Positions 14,987 to 30,685 of a stretch of 64,000 bases of DNA are shown here, in pieces. The position numbers and the translations under genes were made by a program. Each line of letters starts with the position of its first letter. Position 1 is the stretch's first letter. The stretch is from the IMG/VR virus record IMGVR_UViG_2602041781_000001, positions 1,767 through 65,766 of that record; one strand, given 5' to 3'. The notes beneath the pieces were generated by a model that searched no databases, had not been told where the DNA came from, and was given only the letters and a program-made list of their open reading frames with translations. This DNA is from a virus (taxonomy: Duplodnaviria; Caudoviricetes).

Positions 14987-17900
14987 GTGGCGAAGACCTT
15001 CCTGGTCGGTGAAGGCGCCGTCCGGCTCATCCCCAACGCCGCCGGATTCCACGTCAAAGCCCGGAAGGCGATCAAGGAGGGTGGCGGCCTCAACGTCGGC
15101 GTCGACCTCCGGCCGGAGACGAAGGCCTTCCGCCAGGAAGCGCGCACCCGACTCCAGTCGGTCAAGCTCACCCACGACGTCAAGCTCCGCGCCGACATCA
15201 CCGGGTTCAGCCGCGACGCGCAGGCCAAGATCGCCGCCACCCGCAACCTCTCGGCCAACGTCAACCTCCGCACCACCCTCGACAAGGGCTCGCTCCGCAG
15301 CGCATACGACGCCGCGAGATCACTGCTCACCGCGTGGGGTCCGCTGCATGTCTCGATCAAGGCCAGCGTCGACGACGCCGATCTCCGGCGCGCTCTGGAG
15401 CAGATGCGCGTCCGGGTCGAGTCGGCTCGACTCACCGCGAACATCCGCAGCCGCGACCGGGGTGGGTTCGGCGGCCCTTCTCGCGGTGGTGGCGGCCTCG
15501 GTGGTGGTGGCGGTGGGGGAGGGGGCCGACCTGTCCGCAAGGCCGCGATCGCCACGGCGACCATCGCAGCTCCGATCGTCACCCAAGCCGCGCTCGGCGG
15601 TCTCACCGCGCTCGTCGGCGCCGCATCGCAGGCCGCCGGAGCGCTCGGACTCATCCCGGCCGCAGCGACCGCCGCCGGAGCGGGCCTAGCCGCGGTGGCC
15701 ATCGGTGCCGTCGGCATCGGCGGTGCGTTCTCCGCGCTCAGCGACGCCTCGGAACAGGCCGGGAGCGCGGTCAGCCAGAGCGCCAGCCAGCAGGCTTCGG
15801 CACAGCGTCAGATCGCGCAGGCCGACCGTGGGCTCGCCACCGCGCACCGCGGCGTCACCCGCGCGCTCGAAGACCTGAACAACGAGCGCCGCAACGCAGT
15901 TCGTCGCCTCCGCGACATGAACGACGAGCTGAAGATGGCTCCGATCAACGAGCGCGAGGGAGCGCTCGCGATCAAGGAGAGCTACAAGCGGCTCCAGGAG
16001 GCCTACGCCTCGGGAGATGTCCTCGAAATCGAGGGCGCACAGATCGACGTCGAGAAGTCGAAGCTCCAGTACGACCAGATCCGGAAGCAGAACTCCGACC
16101 TGGCCGCTGACGTTGCGGTCGCGAACAAGAAGGGTGTCGAGGGAGACTCCCAGGTCATCGCGGCCAAGGACGGTGTCGTCGACGCCAACAACGCGCTCAT
16201 CGACGCTCAGGACGCGCTCACCTCGGCCATGGAGTCCGCGGCCGAGGCCACCAAGCAGATGGCCGCCGGGACCGACAAGCTCGCGCAGGCGATGGCGAAG
16301 CTCTCCCCCAACGCGCAGGACTTCGTCCGGAAGATCCACGCGCTCGGACCGGCATGGACCGAGACGCGAAAGTTCATCCAGGACAACCTGTTCGCTCATC
16401 TCGGAGACTCGGTTACCACTCTCGCCAACGTGCAGCTCCCGGTGCTCCGAACCGGGCTGGCGGGCATCGCCTCCGAGATCAACCTCGGCGTGCGCGGTGC
16501 GCTGGCCACCTTCTCCACCGAGATGGCCGCCGCCGACTTCACCACCACGCTGGAGAACACCCGGCAGATGTGGGCCGGGATCGGACAGAGCTTCGCCCCG
16601 TTCTCGCAGGCCTTCATGAACCTCGCGACCGTCGGCTCGACGTTCATGCCGCGCCTCGGGACCGCGGTTGCGAACATGGCCAACGAGTTCAAGGCCTTCA
16701 CCGACGAGGCCCGGGCCGACGGCTCGATGCAGGAGTTCTTCGAGAACTCGCTGACCATGGCCAAGCAGCTCGGCCGCATCCTCGCGAACGTCGGAGCCAT
16801 TGTCGGAGAGGTCTTCTCGGCCGGAGCCGAGGTCGGTGGGGGCTTCCTCAACACCATCGAGACCGCGACCGGTGAGCTGCGCGAGTTCCTCGGGTCGGCC
16901 GAGGGTCAGACGGCGCTCACCACCTTCTTCGAGGGTGTCCGCGTCGCGGTGCAGACACTCGCTCCCATCATCCAGATCGTCGCGTCGACGATCCTCACCG
17001 TGCTCGGACCTGCCCTGACCGACCTCGTCATCGGGCTCGGGCCGGGCCTGGTCGCCATGTTCGAGGGGCTGTCCGTCGGCCTCGCGGCGATCCAGCCGGT
17101 GATGCAGGTCGTCGGCCAGGCCATCGGCACCATCGGCGTCGAGCTGGGAGAGGTCTTCAAGGTCATCGGTCCGGTCATCGCCGAGACCCTGTCGGCGCTC
17201 GCACCGGCGGTCCAGCCGCTCGCGCAGGCCTTCGGCTCCCTGATCACCGCGGTGGCGCCGATCCTGCCGCTGCTCGCGCAGCTCGTCGCACAGCTCGTCG
17301 GCGCGCTGGCGCCTGTCCTGACCACCCTCTTCGATGCGCTCGCACCGGTCATCTCGCAACTCGTCGAGGCTCTGATGCCGGTCATCCCACCGCTCGCGGA
17401 GGTGCTCGGCCGACTCGCTGGCGTGTTCGGCGAGATCATCGCGAAGCTGCTCGGCGCGCTCGGTCCGGTGCTCGTCGACCTGGTGAACACCTTCATGGAC
17501 CTGATCACCCAGGTTATGCCGTTCACGAACCTGCTCCTCGACCTCGTCGCCGAAGTGCTCCCGGCCTTCGCGTCGATCCTGACCGAGATCCTCCCGTTGC
17601 TCCCGGCGCTCGTGCAGCCGCTCGTCGAGCTGGCCATGACCGTGCTGCCGCACCTGCTTCCGGTCTTCCAGGCGCTCGTGCCGATCATCGGCGAGGTCAT
17701 GAAGTTCATCGCGGGCATCATCTCGTGGGCTATCCGCGAAGTGATCGTCCCCGTAATCACTTGGCTCTCAACGCCTTTGGAGAACATCGGTCGAGTCTTC
17801 GGCTGGCTGTGGAACGAAGCGATCAAGCCAGCCTGGGATGGGATCACCAACGCGATCTCGTGGGGCTGGGAGAATCTGATCTCTCCGGCCTTCGACGCAC

Positions 17901-20401
17901 TCCAGACTGGGATCTCGCGCGTCGGCGACTTCTTCTCCGACGTCGTCGACGGCATCCAAGTTGCCTGGGGCCGACTGCAATCCGCGGCCTCGACCCCGAT
18001 CAACTGGGTGATCAACCACGTGATCAACGGCGGCATCGGCCGCGCGTGGAAGGCCGTCGACAACTTCCTCGGAGGGCACCTGCCGGACTGGGTCGACGTC
18101 AGCCCGATCGGGATGGCCGTCGGCGGCGAGGTCCCCATGGCCAAGGGTGCCGAGCGGGGCAAGGACTCGGTCCGCATCCTCGGTATGCCGGGCGAGCACA
18201 TGTGGGACGTCGAAGACGTCAACCGCGCCGGTGGTCAGAAGGCGATGTACCGGATGCGCGACATGGTCATGCGCGGGGAGCCGTTCACCTGGACCCCGGG
18301 CGGGCTCGCCGCGGCGACCGGTGACGGCGCGCTGCCGCGCTACGCCAAGGGTGGCGAGCTGTCGGCTGGTGACAAGCTGTCTCCGCTCCCCGGCGAAGGC
18401 GGCCTCCAGCCGATTGCGCAGCTCATGGCGCGCATTATCAAGGGCACCTGGCCGAAGACGGTGTCCTCCATCGGCGGGTATCGGCCGCCGGACGGCTACA
18501 ACGAGCACTCGTCCGGCCGCGCGCTCGACGTCATGGTCACCGAGCTTGGTGGGAAGACCGGCGACGAGGTCACCGACTTCTCGATGGCGAACCACCCGAA
18601 CTACCCGGTGACGCACACCATCTGGAAGCAGATGATGCACTACCCGCCGGACGGCCGCACCGAGGGTATGGACGACCGCGGGTCGCCGACGCAGAACCAC
18701 ATGGACCACCCGCACATCTGGTATGCGCCGAACCAGGGGGCGATCAACCCCAACGTCATGCCGGACAACATCGTGTTCGGCGGGGTTACCGACGCCGGTG
18801 TGCGCAAGGGGATCACCGCGTGGGCTGAGAAGGCCTTCAACACCGCGCTCGCCCCGGTGAAGAAGCTGCTCGACACCCAGGCGTTCAACCCGCCACCCGA
18901 GATCAAGGCGACCCCGCGCGAGCTGTACAAGGGTGTCGTTCAGCCCGCCAAGGAGAAGCTCCTCGACAAGGTGTCGGAGCTGACCTCCATGGAGGGCTGG
19001 AAGAACATGCTCGGCGGCGCCGTGGACAAGGTCCGCAAGGGGGCTGGCGGCCTGCTCGGCGGGATCGCGAAGCTGTTCGACACCGGCGGCGTCGTCCGGC
19101 CGGGCACCACCGTGGTGCAGAACGACACCGGCCAGGACGAATACCTGCTCAACCCGCTCGACACGCTGATGCTGCGCGGGCTCATCGGTGCGCTCCGCGG
19201 CATCGGGATCAACCCGAAGATCGAGCAGCAGGCTCCGCTGACCCCCGAGGGCACCGGTCCCGCAGACGTCAATATCGCTGGCGTCGGCGGCCAGTCGACG
19301 ACCCCGGGCGAGCTTCCCGTCCCGAAGCAGGACGAGATCAAGCCTCCGACGGCTCAGGATCTCGACGGAGGGCTCTCGGGGACCGGCTCCGGCGCGGCGA
19401 CCATCCCGCTGAAGCGCAACCCCGACGGCACGTACACGTCGACCGACCCCGAGTGGGCCAAGCTCATCAAGCGGGAGTCCGGCGGCGACCCCACGGTCAC
19501 CCAGAAGGTCACCGACGTCAACAGCGGCGGCAACGAGGCGTCGGGTCTCTTCCAGATCGCGAAGGGAACCTGGGCCTCGAACGGCGGCACGAAGTTCGCG
19601 CCGACCGCCGGTGAGGCGACCCCGGAGCAGCAGGCCGAGATCGCCGCGAAGATCTTCAACGACCAGGGTGGCTCTCCCTGGGGGTCCGGCGCGGGCCAGA
19701 ACTTCGGCCGCGAGGACGAGGCGCTGCTGCGTGCGGGCATCCGTCCGGCCACCCCGGCGGGCACGAAGGACGACCCGGTCTCGGTCACCGTCGACACCCC
19801 GTCGGCCGACCCGTCGAAGGATTGGCCGACCACGGCGGACACCGCTCCCGGCGACAAGACCGGGTCGGCGTATGGCCAGAACCTCCAGGGTGCGGCGATC
19901 GGGCCGAACGGCGAGTACAAGCCGGATCGGAACGTCACCCCGGGACCGAGCGGGACCGCGGCGCAGAAGCCGATGTTCATCAACCCCTTCGACACCTTCG
20001 AGGGCAAGATCGGGCAGAGCTTCGCCGAGCACACCCCGCTCGGCATCGGCGGTCCGCAAGTCTCCAAGCTCGCCGAGAAGGCCCCGGCCATCACCGAGCT
20101 GGCCAACGGCGTCGCACAGAACATCCCGGCCTACGCCGCGGCGTTGGCGGGCAACCCGGCCATGCTCGCTGAGAAGGTCGCCACCGCCACCGGCGCCTGG
20201 GCCACCAAGACCGCGACTGACTTCGCCAGCTACGTCCCCGAGAACGCCGGAGGCATGGTCGAGTCGCTGCTGTCCGCAGCCGCCGGGCCGCTGATTGGTA
20301 CGGTGAACACCGGCCTGAGCAAGGACGACTTGACGTCAACCATGGAGGACGTCCAGAACCGGCAGATCAGGCGGACCAAGACCGGGCGACGGAGGATCTG
20401 A
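14987..20401 (+). CDS. tape measure protein with peptidase-like and Rpf-like transglycosylase domains
   Basis: 1804 aa Ala/Leu-rich helical protein with Trp periodicity; EHSSGRALD...HMDHPHI; IKRESGG...GLFQI..TW...EQQAEIA...QG.SPW. Confidence 0.95.
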   Translation: MAKTFLVGEGAVRLIPNAAGFHVKARKAIKEGGGLNVGVDLRPETKAFRQEARTRLQSVKLTHDVKLRADITGFSRDAQAKIAATRNLSANVNLRTTLDKGSLRSAYDAARSLLTAWGPLHVSIKASVDDADLRRALEQMRVRVESARLTANIRSRDRGGFGGPSRGGGGLGGGGGGGGGRPVRKAAIATATIAAPIVTQAALGGLTALVGAASQAAGALGLIPAAATAAGAGLAAVAIGAVGIGGAFSALSDASEQAGSAVSQSASQQASAQRQIAQADRGLATAHRGVTRALEDLNNERRNAVRRLRDMNDELKMAPINEREGALAIKESYKRLQEAYASGDVLEIEGAQIDVEKSKLQYDQIRKQNSDLAADVAVANKKGVEGDSQVIAAKDGVVDANNALIDAQDALTSAMESAAEATKQMAAGTDKLAQAMAKLSPNAQDFVRKIHALGPAWTETRKFIQDNLFAHLGDSVTTLANVQLPVLRTGLAGIASEINLGVRGALATFSTEMAAADFTTTLENTRQMWAGIGQSFAPFSQAFMNLATVGSTFMPRLGTAVANMANEFKAFTDEARADGSMQEFFENSLTMAKQLGRILANVGAIVGEVFSAGAEVGGGFLNTIETATGELREFLGSAEGQTALTTFFEGVRVAVQTLAPIIQIVASTILTVLGPALTDLVIGLGPGLVAMFEGLSVGLAAIQPVMQVVGQAIGTIGVELGEVFKVIGPVIAETLSALAPAVQPLAQAFGSLITAVAPILPLLAQLVAQLVGALAPVLTTLFDALAPVISQLVEALMPVIPPLAEVLGRLAGVFGEIIAKLLGALGPVLVDLVNTFMDLITQVMPFTNLLLDLVAEVLPAFASILTEILPLLPALVQPLVELAMTVLPHLLPVFQALVPIIGEVMKFIAGIISWAIREVIVPVITWLSTPLENIGRVFGWLWNEAIKPAWDGITNAISWGWENLISPAFDALQTGISRVGDFFSDVVDGIQVAWGRLQSAASTPINWVINHVINGGIGRAWKAVDNFLGGHLPDWVDVSPIGMAVGGEVPMAKGAERGKDSVRILGMPGEHMWDVEDVNRAGGQKAMYRMRDMVMRGEPFTWTPGGLAAATGDGALPRYAKGGELSAGDKLSPLPGEGGLQPIAQLMARIIKGTWPKTVSSIGGYRPPDGYNEHSSGRALDVMVTELGGKTGDEVTDFSMANHPNYPVTHTIWKQMMHYPPDGRTEGMDDRGSPTQNHMDHPHIWYAPNQGAINPNVMPDNIVFGGVTDAGVRKGITAWAEKAFNTALAPVKKLLDTQAFNPPPEIKATPRELYKGVVQPAKEKLLDKVSELTSMEGWKNMLGGAVDKVRKGAGGLLGGIAKLFDTGGVVRPGTTVVQNDTGQDEYLLNPLDTLMLRGLIGALRGIGINPKIEQQAPLTPEGTGPADVNIAGVGGQSTTPGELPVPKQDEIKPPTAQDLDGGLSGTGSGAATIPLKRNPDGTYTSTDPEWAKLIKRESGGDPTVTQKVTDVNSGGNEASGLFQIAKGTWASNGGTKFAPTAGEATPEQQAEIAAKIFNDQGGSPWGSGAGQNFGREDEALLRAGIRPATPAGTKDDPVSVTVDTPSADPSKDWPTTADTAPGDKTGSAYGQNLQGAAIGPNGEYKPDRNVTPGPSGTAAQKPMFINPFDTFEGKIGQSFAEHTPLGIGGPQVSKLAEKAPAITELANGVAQNIPAYAAALAGNPAMLAEKVATATGAWATKTATDFASYVPENAGGMVESLLSAAAGPLIGTVNTGLSKDDLTSTMEDVQNRQIRRTKTGRRRI

Positions 20402-28199: not shown

Positions 28200-28838
28200 G
28201 TGAAGATGGCCGCTGGCGACGTCGTACTGAAGTTCGACCATGTGATCATCCCGCAGGAGCGCTATTACTGGTGCGGACCTGCGACGATGCAAGTGTTGCT
28301 GTCGATTCGAGGCATCAAGGTCACCGAGAAGTACATGGCTGACCAGCTCGGGACCACCGAGAATGGCACCGACACCATCCTCTACCTCACCCGCGAGCTG
28401 AACGAGCGCCTCGGCGACATCTACCGGACCGTGCAGGTCCCGGGAGCCGGAAATCTCGACCAGTTCCGCGAGCACGTCTTCCACTCGATCGACGCAGGGT
28501 ACGGCGTCGGCGGCAATATCATGGTGCCCCCGGCCAACTACCCGCGACCGCAGCGAGGGGAGCGCGCGCAGTACAGCGGCGGGTGGGTCTACCACTACTG
28601 GTCGATCGTCGGGAAGAACGAGCGTCTCGATCAGATGGCGATCGCCGACAGCGGGTTCCCCGACTTCTACTACTGGGTCACCAGCGAACAGGCGCTCTCG
28701 ATGATTTCCGGCAAGGGGTACACCTGGGCCGCGAATGCGAAGGTCGCCGACGACTTCCTCGGGTCCCTGTCCGACGCCGACCAGCGTCGCGTGCTCGCCG
28801 CCGCGATCCAGGTCTCCGAGCCCCACCGAGGAGCATGA
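28200..28838 (+). CDS. lysin A, C39-like cysteine peptidase subunit
   Basis: QE.YYWCGPAT, YHYWSIVG, IADSGF (Cys-His-Asp); GGAGAGG RBS. Confidence 0.85.
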   Translation: MKMAAGDVVLKFDHVIIPQERYYWCGPATMQVLLSIRGIKVTEKYMADQLGTTENGTDTILYLTRELNERLGDIYRTVQVPGAGNLDQFREHVFHSIDAGYGVGGNIMVPPANYPRPQRGERAQYSGGWVYHYWSIVGKNERLDQMAIADSGFPDFYYWVTSEQALSMISGKGYTWAANAKVADDFLGSLSDADQRRVLAAAIQVSEPHRGA

Positions 28839-29860
28839 TGGACGCCATCACCTTGCGTCAGGCGCTCATGCCGACGACGAAGATGACCGATGACCTGCGA
28901 CCCTTCGTTCCCTACGTCGAGAACGCGATGGAGATCGCCGGAGTCAACACCGTCCGGCGGGCCGCGGCGTGGTTCGCGACCATCGGCGAGGAGACGGGTG
29001 GGTTCGCCAACTTCGTCGAGCTGTGGGGTCCGACCGCGCAGCAACGAGGGTACGAAGGCCGGGCCGACCTCGGGAACACCGTCAACGGAGACGGCTACCG
29101 CTTCCGCGGTCGAGGGGCCATCCAGCTCACCGGCCGCAACAACTATCGCGAGTTCGGAAAGTGGTGTGTCGCAAGAGGTCTCGTCGATGACCCCGAGCAC
29201 TTCACGAAGAATCCGGACCTCGTCGCGACCCCGCGGTGGGGGTTCCTGGCCGCGGCGAAATACTGGTCGACGACCTCGCGCAAGGGGAAGACGATCAACG
29301 AGTGGGCCGACGCCGGGGACATCCTGGCCGTCAGCCGATGCGTCAACGGCTGGGTCGACGGGGTCATGCCCTGGGGATGGCCCGGGCGACAGCAGCGTTA
29401 CAAGACATGTCTCGCGCTCGGCGAGGCGATCCTACCGGGAGGTTTTCTCATGGCACTCGACGACAAGGCTCAGGGGACCATCCTCGGCGCCGCGATCCAG
29501 ACCGGCGACGCGCAGGTCACCGACGTCGAGAAGGGTGTGATCGGGCCACGGCCGCAGCGGCACACCCAGTTCTACAACGTCGACGGTAATCCGTCGCTCG
29601 CGGCCAAGGGCAAGAAGCTCGCCTACCTGCGCGCGATGGTCATGGACCTCTGGAACGAGCTGGTCTACGACGGCTACGTCGCCGACATCGAGGACCCGGC
29701 GCTCGACGACAAGCGCTACGGCTCGCCGGTGCGATTCATCACCGCGATCCACAAGAACGTCCGCCAGTCCTTCCTCCTGATCAAGGCGATCGCGGAGAAG
29801 GTCGGCGTGGACACCAAGGCCGTGCTCGAACCGGCCCCAACCATCGAGGAGAAGAAGTGA
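28835..29860 (+). CDS. lysin A, GH19 glycoside hydrolase plus C-terminal domain
   Basis: A.IGEETGG, YEGRADLGNT..GDGYRFRGRG.IQLTGRNNY, VNG motifs. Confidence 0.9.
   Translation: MMDAITLRQALMPTTKMTDDLRPFVPYVENAMEIAGVNTVRRAAAWFATIGEETGGFANFVELWGPTAQQRGYEGRADLGNTVNGDGYRFRGRGAIQLTGRNNYREFGKWCVARGLVDDPEHFTKNPDLVATPRWGFLAAAKYWSTTSRKGKTINEWADAGDILAVSRCVNGWVDGVMPWGWPGRQQRYKTCLALGEAILPGGFLMALDDKAQGTILGAAIQTGDAQVTDVEKGVIGPRPQRHTQFYNVDGNPSLAAKGKKLAYLRAMVMDLWNELVYDGYVADIEDPALDDKRYGSPVRFITAIHKNVRQSFLLIKAIAEKVGVDTKAVLEPAPTIEEKK
29450..29860 (+). CDS. putative in-frame internal product (136-aa C-terminal domain) of the GH19 lysin
   Basis: GGAGG 29438-29442, 7-nt spacer, in-frame ATG 29450 at the domain boundary. 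Confidence 0.6.
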   Translation: MALDDKAQGTILGAAIQTGDAQVTDVEKGVIGPRPQRHTQFYNVDGNPSLAAKGKKLAYLRAMVMDLWNELVYDGYVADIEDPALDDKRYGSPVRFITAIHKNVRQSFLLIKAIAEKVGVDTKAVLEPAPTIEEKK

Positions 29861-30171
29861 CTCTGCCCAACGTGCCCGACGTCCCATCGAGCATCGTCAT
29901 CGACGAACTCCGGGCCACCCTGGAGCGCCAGCCGTGGTACAAACGGTTCGCCAACACCGTCACCACCGCGGTCGGCGTGCTGTCCCTGGTCATCTGGACC
30001 CTGGCGGCCAACGGTTTCGATCTCTCCGACGCATGGAAGAACGGGATCGGCGCCGCGCTGGCCGTCCTGACCGTGCTCGGCGTGCTTCGGACCCCCAACG
30101 GCGTCACTCCGCGCGGGGTGGCCACCGTCCAGGTCGCCGCCGTGGCCGCGGGTCGTCATCGACAGGAGTAA
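29857..30171 (+). CDS. holin
   Basis: Two TM segments; QPWYKRFANTVT and TPNGVT motifs; follows lysin. Confidence 0.8.
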   Translation: MTLPNVPDVPSSIVIDELRATLERQPWYKRFANTVTTAVGVLSLVIWTLAANGFDLSDAWKNGIGAALAVLTVLGVLRTPNGVTPRGVATVQVAAVAAGRHRQE

Positions 30172-30175
30172 TCGA

Positions 30176-30685
30176 GTGCTCGATCGCCTGAAGACCCTCC
30201 TCCCCGAGAAGGGGAGTTGGGTTCCGCTGATCCCGATGCCGATCCGGATGGTCATCCTGATCCTTTGGGCGATCGAGCCTATCTCGCGAGGACTCGACTA
30301 CATCACCGGCGACGCTCCGAACGTCACCCAGTCGCTCAACGCGGTCGAGGGGGCGCTTCCCCTCCAGGCATGGGGCGCCTTTTGTCTCACCGCTGGCGTG
30401 CTCATCCTGGCCGGATTCGCCGGACGATGGAAACGAATCGCCGTGACCGGCCTGCACATTGCTGGGGCGACGTACTTCTGCCTGGCCGTCGGTCTGACCG
30501 ACACCGCTATCGAACGAGGTGGCGACGGCTTTCGCACCCCGGTGATGTTCTTCATCTTCGCGCTCACATACTGGTGTGCCGCGTTCGGATATGCTCTGAT
30601 CCGACGCGAGCAAGTGGTCGTTGTCACCGACGATGACCCGGAAGACGCGAAGGTGCCCGATGGAACTGCCGATCCCCACCACTGA
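30176..30685 (+). CDS. membrane protein (about 4 TM), lysis cassette
   Basis: Four hydrophobic segments; RGLDY motif. Confidence 0.75.
   Translation: MLDRLKTLLPEKGSWVPLIPMPIRMVILILWAIEPISRGLDYITGDAPNVTQSLNAVEGALPLQAWGAFCLTAGVLILAGFAGRWKRIAVTGLHIAGATYFCLAVGLTDTAIERGGDGFRTPVMFFIFALTYWCAAFGYALIRREQVVVVTDDDPEDAKVPDGTADPHH

Follow-up and report, generated by a model that had tools for sequence, protein, structure and literature searches.

The lysin A of the phage analysed here is divided between two genes, and a short helix that opens the C-terminal domain of one product recurs at the end of the other. The DNA is a 64,000-nucleotide stretch (positions 1,767 to 65,766) of the IMG/VR virus record IMGVR_UViG_2602041781_000001 (Duplodnaviria; Caudoviricetes), called the window in the following, and all nucleotide coordinates given for it are positions within this stretch. 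Lysin A subunit 1 is a C39-like cysteine peptidase of 210 amino acids (28206..28838, plus strand) and subunit 2 is a GH19-type glycosidase of 341 amino acids that carries a C-terminal domain (CTD; 28835..29860, plus strand). From the comparison with related phages we conclude that the peptidase tail is very probably under selection for function and that an ATG at 29450 inside the GH19 gene is very likely to be used for translation as an internal start, which would supply the CTD as a protein of its own. The best available reading of both features is a multi-polypeptide endolysin assembled through the shared helix, a proposal that we regard as evenly poised between right and wrong.

The peptidase tail and its match to the partner domain

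The motif FLGSLSDADQRRVLAAAIQ occupies residues 184-202 of the peptidase (28755-28811) and is part of a C-terminal tail (residues 179-210; 28740..28835, plus strand) that also holds the turn SEPH. Its counterpart FLMALDDKAQGTILGAAIQ is the first helix of the CTD (residues 204-222 of the GH19 protein; 29444..29500, plus strand) and stands directly behind the catalytic domain, where an earlier reading made from the letters of the window and its open reading frames (the sequence-only reading) had placed it. The same reading had the peptidase end in the motif; the motif does lie near the C-terminus, but eight residues, VSEPHRGA, still follow it, and the shared element itself reaches past the helix into a turn of the form G-[DE]-[PA]-[HQ]. 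The two copies are the best ungapped 19-mer between the peptidase and the GH19 protein, with a BLOSUM62 score of 41. A six-frame search of the window with a hidden Markov model (HMM) of the motif gave only two significant matches, namely the tail (E-value 2e-11) and the GH19 copy, called the head below (E-value 4e-10); with tail and head as the only matches, the possibility that lysin B or the holin also bears a helix tag was rejected.

The strength of the case rests on conservation in relatives and not on the pair in the window. All 17 split C39 subunits, which are 27-99% identical, end in x-F-[LF]-x-x-[LF]-[ST]-D-x-x-x-x-x-[VI]-[LI]-A-A-A-x-Q-V-G-[DE]-P-[HQ], and the glutamine of the tail (Q202) is invariant in these 17 proteins as is the glutamine of the head (Q222) in 15 CTD-bearing proteins. 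In the AlphaFold2 model of the peptidase the tail lies outside the confident C39 fold, with a predicted local distance difference test score (pLDDT) of 50-70 and a helix at residues 190-204 that is not packed against the domain. Across twelve genomes the ratio of nonsynonymous to synonymous substitution rates (dN/dS) is 0.38 for the tail and 0.10 for the C39 domain. The motif HMM (T1) found 27 matches among 113 proteins, including every split subunit and every CTD protein of the window type, and none among 58 fused C39 lysins. In the fused C39-GH19 lysins of mycobacteriophages the C39 domain is followed by a Pro/Ala linker and then by GH19, and the idea that the helix is a leftover inter-domain linker of such a fused ancestor was rejected, as the fused forms are without the helix (0/58). 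Tails read AAA-x-Q-V and heads GAA-I-Q-T/M, and because of this systematic difference the two are old, separately evolving copies and not the product of recent gene conversions.

The match between tail and partner was analyzed by aligning the 70 C-terminal residues of the upstream subunit with the downstream lysin (Smith-Waterman, 300 shuffles each) in 15 split pairs, which gave 18 comparisons as GMA2 and Sixama have three downstream genes each; in both of these phages only the adjacent lysin matched the tail. The end of the upstream subunit resembles the C-terminal part of its partner in 13 of the 15 pairs at z >= 2.2, and in 10 pairs z is >= 4.1. The strongest matches were obtained for Nadeem (z = 41), Bunnybear (37), Ecliptus (35), Rabbitrun (23), Sephiroth (22), Sixama (12) and GMA2 (11), followed by the window-type pairs of Smoothie (6.5), IDyn (6.0), Mollymur (4.4), Bantam (4.1), the window itself (2.9), BrutonGaster (2.2) and Daredevil (0.7), with SCentae at 0.2. 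The correspondence extends over CTD families that are unrelated to each other. In all cases the tail corresponds to the first part of the partner CTD and stops before the CTD end, and its length is graded, from the full CTD in Nadeem and most of it in Rabbitrun and Sephiroth to about half in Ecliptus and Bunnybear and the helix only in the window, GMA2 and Sixama. The tails of Ecliptus and Bunnybear share the end residues HERYTEAR despite their different partners, GH19 and GH25. We also surveyed 80 loci around L-Ala-D-Glu peptidase lysins, from which four (L021-L024) were usable, the upstream open reading frames (ORFs) elsewhere usually not being lysins.

Tails also follow the type of their partner. 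For 12 phages of two types the mean tail-head score is 32.9 when both are of one type and 19.7 when the types differ; cognate pairs average 36.9. Pleakley, which is related to the window phage, has its genes in the same order but a different CTD; the C39 domains of the two are 66% identical and the tails 36%, and each tail fits the head of its own partner, with an AAAIQV tail and a GAAIQT head in the window and a DEFAQLGE tail and an AEAKQLGD head in Pleakley. The shared-helix design seems to be general in the split lysins of Gordonia phages.

A probable internal start at the domain junction

A Shine-Dalgarno-like (SD-like) GGAGG (29438..29442, plus strand) lies within the GH19 gene 7 nucleotides (nt) upstream of the in-frame ATG at 29450, and translation from there would give a free CTD of 136 amino acids and 14.9 kDa (29450..29860, plus strand) with the shared helix at its front. 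The sequence-only reading had described the same start, spacing and product length and a mass of about 15 kDa, and all of this agrees with what we read in the sequence. An in-frame start codon and a ribosome-binding site at a domain boundary, the features that mark a two-polypeptide endolysin, are thus both present at ATG 29450. The 54 ORFs of the window that are likely to be coding contain 282 internal in-frame ATGs; two of these, ATG 29450 included, have GGAGG 5-10 nt upstream, and eight carry a signal when the SD is defined less strictly.

For the GGAGG of the window the anti-SD duplex is predicted at -11.5 kcal/mol, and at the junction ATG it lies between -8.5 and -12.6 kcal/mol in 20 of 20 genomes, while the same genes hold 109 further internal in-frame ATGs, with a mean of -2.4 kcal/mol and one of them at or below -8. 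Motif and ribosome-binding site, whose lack of conservation would have counted against the sequence-only reading, are both kept in homologues, the SD-like signal with its ATG in all 20 genomes and the motif with its invariant glutamine. In the ten genomes of the window's group CTA CCG GGA GGT TTx CTC ATG is unvarying except for one position. Counted at invariant residues in these ten genomes, all five of the consecutive fourfold sites ahead of the ATG are unchanged, versus 38 of 114 (33%) in the gene as a whole; the frozen third bases belong to the codons CTA CCG GGA GGT and to CTC next to the ATG, and CTA and GGA are rare.

The start signal is kept while the linker that encodes it varies, the variants being PGGFLM, PGGLDDM, PGGIDSM, KEDGLM, EEEGLM, EEAGPM and GEGFLM. 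In IDyn (CCG GGA GGA CTG GAC GAC ATG) the methionine occupies a shifted place in the linker, yet it too has an SD-like GGGAGGA 9 nt upstream. The junction reads AAG GAG GAC GGT CTC ATG in Smoothie, Mollymur and BrutonGaster, GAG GAG GAC GGT CTC ATG in Daredevil, GAA GAG GAA GGC CTG ATG in Bantam and GAA GAG GAG GCC GGT CCC ATG in locus L023. On the protein level a junction methionine is present in 13 of 15 cluster representatives, 12 times at the aligned column and once three residues later. An SD-like signal with ATG or GTG also occurs at the junction of catalytic domain and CTD in six more split lysins with other CTD families, namely in the second lysin genes of Bunnybear (L020), Sephiroth (L101), SCentae (L102), Nadeem (L103), Rabbitrun (L019) and Ecliptus (L018); the start is GTG in Rabbitrun and Ecliptus and ATG in the other four, as in TTT GGA GGC ACC ACC ATG of Bunnybear or GGAGGAGGAAAAGAC ATG of SCentae. 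Internal starts may be the rule in Gordonia phage lysins.

These data also bear on the explanation that neither element has a function, in which the tail would be a recombination scar of lysin module shuffling, the SD and methionine a by-product of the Gly/Glu linker, and the two proteins independent enzymes. Such an origin would suit the modest pairwise similarity in the window and the often Gly/Glu-rich linkers, and actinophage lysins are, reportedly after Payne and Hatfull in 2012, highly mosaic. We nevertheless consider it very unlikely, since the tail is kept where the C39 domains are down to about 28% identity, ends at the same place across different phage clusters and evolves at a dN/dS of 0.38, while the synonymous sites of the SD are frozen, methionine and SD recur in seven codon contexts, and free-standing CTD genes in other phages begin at the same point.

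Free C-terminal domains and proposed assembly through the helix

The CTD core (29501..29857, plus strand) is a putative wall-binding module of Gordonia terrae phages. The CTD was found in 87 phage records, all of them from Gordonia phages and with G. terrae as the host in every record that states one (a single record does not), and it is joined in these phages to either GH19 or L-Ala-D-Glu peptidase. A search of 1.84 billion protein representatives returned four clusters at 50% identity, all consisting of lysins of 308-335 amino acids. For the last 136 residues we obtained no Pfam family above noise, no PDB sequence match and no usable match in the ESM Atlas, and none of the known cell-wall-binding domains compared (LysM, SH3, PG_binding, LGFP, CW_7 and others) is matched by the CTD. 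As it is swapped between catalytic domains and limited to one host species the CTD resembles a targeting domain, and we infer that it is a host-specific wall-targeting module.

The counterpart of the CTD in Pleakley is encoded by separate genes in other phages. The Pleakley GH19 gene has the FLMALDD junction of the window, with GGAGAGGGG, 6 nt and then ATG, and its predicted internal-start product of 135 amino acids is 68% identical (E-value 4e-58) to ObLaDi gp29, a free-standing gene product of 127 amino acids, the N-termini of the two being within 4 residues of each other. GMA2, Sixama and Lilbeanie have free-standing homologues of 123-127 amino acids in their lysis cassettes, annotated as 'hypothetical' or 'putative lysin', and according to the search listing Boopy has one as well. 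The core of the free-standing protein is of the FPSRS...DTLAG family, whose members are C-terminal domains of lysins, and is 41% identical to the C-terminus of the Ecliptus GH19 protein (E-value 9e-16). The genes are Orf37 of GMA2 (L104:3520-3891), gp108 of Sixama (L105:3510-3881), gp39 of Lilbeanie (L107:2801-3172) and gp29 of ObLaDi (L108:2801-3184), and each of them precedes a gene for a papain-like (Peptidase_C1) cysteine protease that has no tail.

In these four phages the C39 subunit and a second catalytic subunit (GH19 or amidase) both terminate in a helix-QLG tail of the form ...LLG-x-TD-x-x-L-A-E-[FA]-x-x-x-x-[RN]-Q-L-G-[PE]-x with nothing beyond, and the free CTD proteins open with M-[SA]-D-[AK]-x-D-[AV]-[LV]-x-[GN]-[AS]-[RK]-Q-[LM]-G. 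Between the free-CTD heads and the tails of GMA2 and Sixama z is about 0 and not significant alone, the likeness consisting of the position and the Q-L-G turn. A targeting subunit without catalysis makes sense only if it is joined to enzymes, and the helix is the sole element common to all three proteins.

We therefore favour a model in which the GH19 gene would be read from two starts, giving the 37.7-kDa enzyme and the free 14.9-kDa CTD. The CTD would serve as the host-specific targeting module, as suggested by its location, by the fact that it is confined to G. terrae phages and by its swapping between catalytic domains, and the C39 peptidase, itself without such a module, would use the conserved copy of about 27 residues of the first helix and turn of the CTD in which it ends. 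Copies of the helix at the C-terminus of the peptidase, inside the GH19-CTD protein and at the N-terminus of the free CTD would then associate, possibly as a small helical bundle, and this association would tether the peptidase to the CTD and let the peptide-cutting and the glycan-cutting activity act together. The sequence-only reading had likewise proposed that the three products co-assemble through the helix so that the peptidase borrows a wall-binding domain; comparison strongly supports the internal start in this interpretation and supports the helix as a functional element, with the assembly itself at the lower strength given at the outset.

A wider version of the model, which we put forward tentatively and with somewhat less confidence than assembly in the window, is that of a portable helix tag. 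Separate catalytic subunits (C39, GH19, amidase) would end in a helix-turn of about 20-25 residues and form a hetero-oligomeric bundle with a targeting subunit, and the parts would be exchangeable as long as tag and head match. The targeting subunit would then come from an internal start, as predicted for the window, Pleakley and Smoothie, or from a gene of its own, as in Lilbeanie, ObLaDi, GMA2 and Sixama. In Smoothie a gene for an HNH endonuclease (L010:2509-2970) lies between the two split lysin A genes, and the split arrangement, as this insertion indicates, tolerates gene separation.

The graded series of tails can also be read as a stepwise reduction of a binding domain, and the helix-turn might then bind the envelope or membrane itself, or be the essential first part of a binding domain, so that each polypeptide would have its own copy for targeting and no complex would form; a short product could still be made. 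The complete, homologous CTDs of 70 amino acids on both Nadeem subunits and the limitation of the CTD to G. terrae phages would agree with this. We hold such independent targeting to be unlikely, as about 25 residues are very short for a specific wall-binding module, a free-standing CTD without catalysis would be useless or inhibitory unless associated with enzymes, and the type of the tail switches with the head of the partner CTD between related phages of the same host strain.

Helices of double-glycine leader peptides are docking sites for the C39 domains of ABC exporters, and the peptidase model resembles the leader-processing domains ComA PEP and PCAT1. The amphipathic helix could accordingly be a substrate or docking site of the C39 domain or an autoinhibitory tail, acting in processing or timing instead of assembly, and the L-[ST]-D-x-E-L-x-E in GMA2/Lilbeanie-type tails is loosely leader-like when judged by eye. 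This is improbable, as the motif lies at the very end of the enzymes and at the very beginning of the free CTD, where cleavage would free almost nothing; moreover amidase and GH19 subunits bear the tail too, no Gly-Gly follows the helix, and the tail is modelled away from the active-site groove.

Several observations weigh against helix-mediated assembly or against the evidence used for it. The motif pair of the window is by itself only moderately significant: BLASTP with composition adjustment of the peptidase against the GH19 protein did not list it, for which reason the significance was taken from shuffles, and its score of 41 was matched or exceeded in 8 of 2000 shuffled peptidases. The z of the window pair is modest (2.9), and those of Daredevil (0.7) and SCentae (0.2) are not significant. 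The tail is less constrained (dN/dS 0.38) than the domain (0.10), and the matched C-termini in Nadeem, where both subunits have the complete CTD, could mean that each binds the same ligand independently. The AlphaFold2 monomer model of the CTD, built from an 18-sequence alignment, is poor (pLDDT 56) and gives no structural backing to its fold or its wall-binding role. As for the internal start, the 20 genomes are not phylogenetically independent and represent about seven to eight codon contexts, SD-like strings are more to be expected in Gly/Glu-rich linkers than in coding sequence at large, and two distant GH25-linked CTD proteins (P0040 and P0041), compared as protein sequences, are without the junction methionine. 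According to the text of the survey by Pinto et al., internal-start products also do not always multimerise (PMC9430671).

Gene assignments and comparison with known endolysins

The assignment of the 23.4-kDa peptidase follows from a match to Peptidase_C39_2 (PF13529) of 37.9 bits (cutoff 24), from a PHROG label as endolysin and from the residues Q17, C23, H130 and D148, which are invariant across 34 relatives. Its AlphaFold2 model (pLDDT 86.7, confident to about residue 178) has a papain/C39 fold for which Foldseek matched ComA PEP, PCAT1 and PeiR with E-values of 1e-5 to 1e-8, and a profile match above the cutoff, the catalytic Cys and His and the papain-like fold, which together define a C39-like peptidase, are all found. 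Besides the C39 domain the protein has only the 32-residue tail, in line with the claim of the sequence-only reading that it is without a wall-binding domain. The stop of the peptidase gene and the start of the GH19 gene overlap in ATGA. The GH19 protein scores 21.3 bits against Glyco_hydro_19 (PF00182), which is below the cutoff of 25.5; its family profile matches solved phage endolysin domains (9hnv_A with an E-value of 3.8e-53, also 9hqw_A) at positions 3-195 only, the protein matches the endolysin family PHROG 9506 (E-value 2.8e-180), and its relatives carry the annotation 'glycosyl hydrolase domain'.

Directly downstream of the GH19 gene a holin-like membrane protein is encoded (29857..30171, plus strand; PHROG 3428 holin, E-value 2.9e-37), whose relatives are annotated as holin or membrane protein. 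The ORF that follows the holin (30176-30685, plus strand) is labelled 'minor tail protein' by PHROG (E-value 7e-49), a label that is probably wrong because of the location in the lysis cassette and the annotation 'membrane protein' in its relatives. Elsewhere in the window the tape measure protein (14987-20401, plus strand; 1804 amino acids) has secondary PHROG matches to endolysin and transglycosylase families at residues of about 1118-1576, which suggests that it holds an embedded wall-degrading motif.

PlyC of the streptococcal phage C1 is encoded by two genes, with PlyCA as catalytic subunit and PlyCB as binding octamer, and to our knowledge it is the only established endolysin built from the products of two genes. 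The system described here is alike in dividing catalysis and putative binding between different polypeptides, whose assembly would be non-covalent, and the gene for the catalytic subunit without binding domain is indeed not the one that holds the putative binding module; the putative binding subunit likewise has a gene of its own in Lilbeanie, ObLaDi, GMA2 and Sixama. It differs in having two different catalytic subunits instead of one with two domains, and in the proposed docking via a shared short helix. No sequence relation to PlyC turned up in the Pfam searches, which gave C39_2 and GH19 only, with no dedicated PlyC comparison made.

With Lys170, CTP1L, CD27L and LysIME-EF1 the window shares the in-frame SD and ATG at the junction of catalytic domain and CTD and a short product that would be the CTD alone. 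In the Lys170-type enzymes this product multimerises with the full-length enzyme, whereas here it is predicted from sequence. Multimerisation of an internal-start cell-wall-binding domain with the full-length enzyme is described for CTP1L (PMC4777826) and LysIME-EF1 (PMC7098653). The window differs from this type in a CTD unrelated to the described wall-binding domains, in a host that is a mycolic-acid actinobacterium and in a second catalytic subunit, encoded by another gene, that copies the first helix of the CTD, which is the case in no described system. The predicted internal start of the window adds a case to the already known internal-start endolysins, while the tail copy on the second subunit would be new.

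Internal starts are widespread in endolysins according to the text of the survey by Pinto et al. 2022, which includes a verified mycobacteriophage lysin (PMC9430671); 'Gordonia' was not found in its main text. As stated there, Ms6 LysA and Pollywog LysA have experimentally verified in-frame internal starts (PMC9430671), but these lie between two catalytic domains and the short product keeps one of them, where the product in the window would be the CTD alone. The fused lysin A of mycobacteriophages such as Adephagia and DarthP combines these two catalytic modules in identical order, the C39 domains being about 40% identical, and the peptidase aligns to positions 4-208 and the GH19 protein to positions 203-385 of the single profile PHROG 1519. 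The fused form is without the helix motif; the lysin A of the window, by contrast, is split into two genes and its peptidase has acquired the tail.

Gordonia phages with a split lysA have been described before, and the passages concerned call the contribution of the split genes unknown (PMC9671378; PMC5559632). For GMA2 the passage on the lysis genes notes 'four lysin genes' and makes no comment there on Orf37 or on tails (PMC4524720). In the full-text literature searched, with subscription journals and supplementary tables outside the scope, neither the tail nor its match to the partner CTD nor the free-standing CTD genes were found described.

It is common for Gordonia phages to have lysin A split between genes. 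Should the tail be a docking tag, it would explain how a peptidase without a binding domain is targeted, and the small 'hypothetical' genes in the lysis cassettes would be free targeting subunits. The matching of tag and head would then provide a simple rule by which such cassettes could be annotated and multi-activity lysins constructed against mycolic-acid bacteria.

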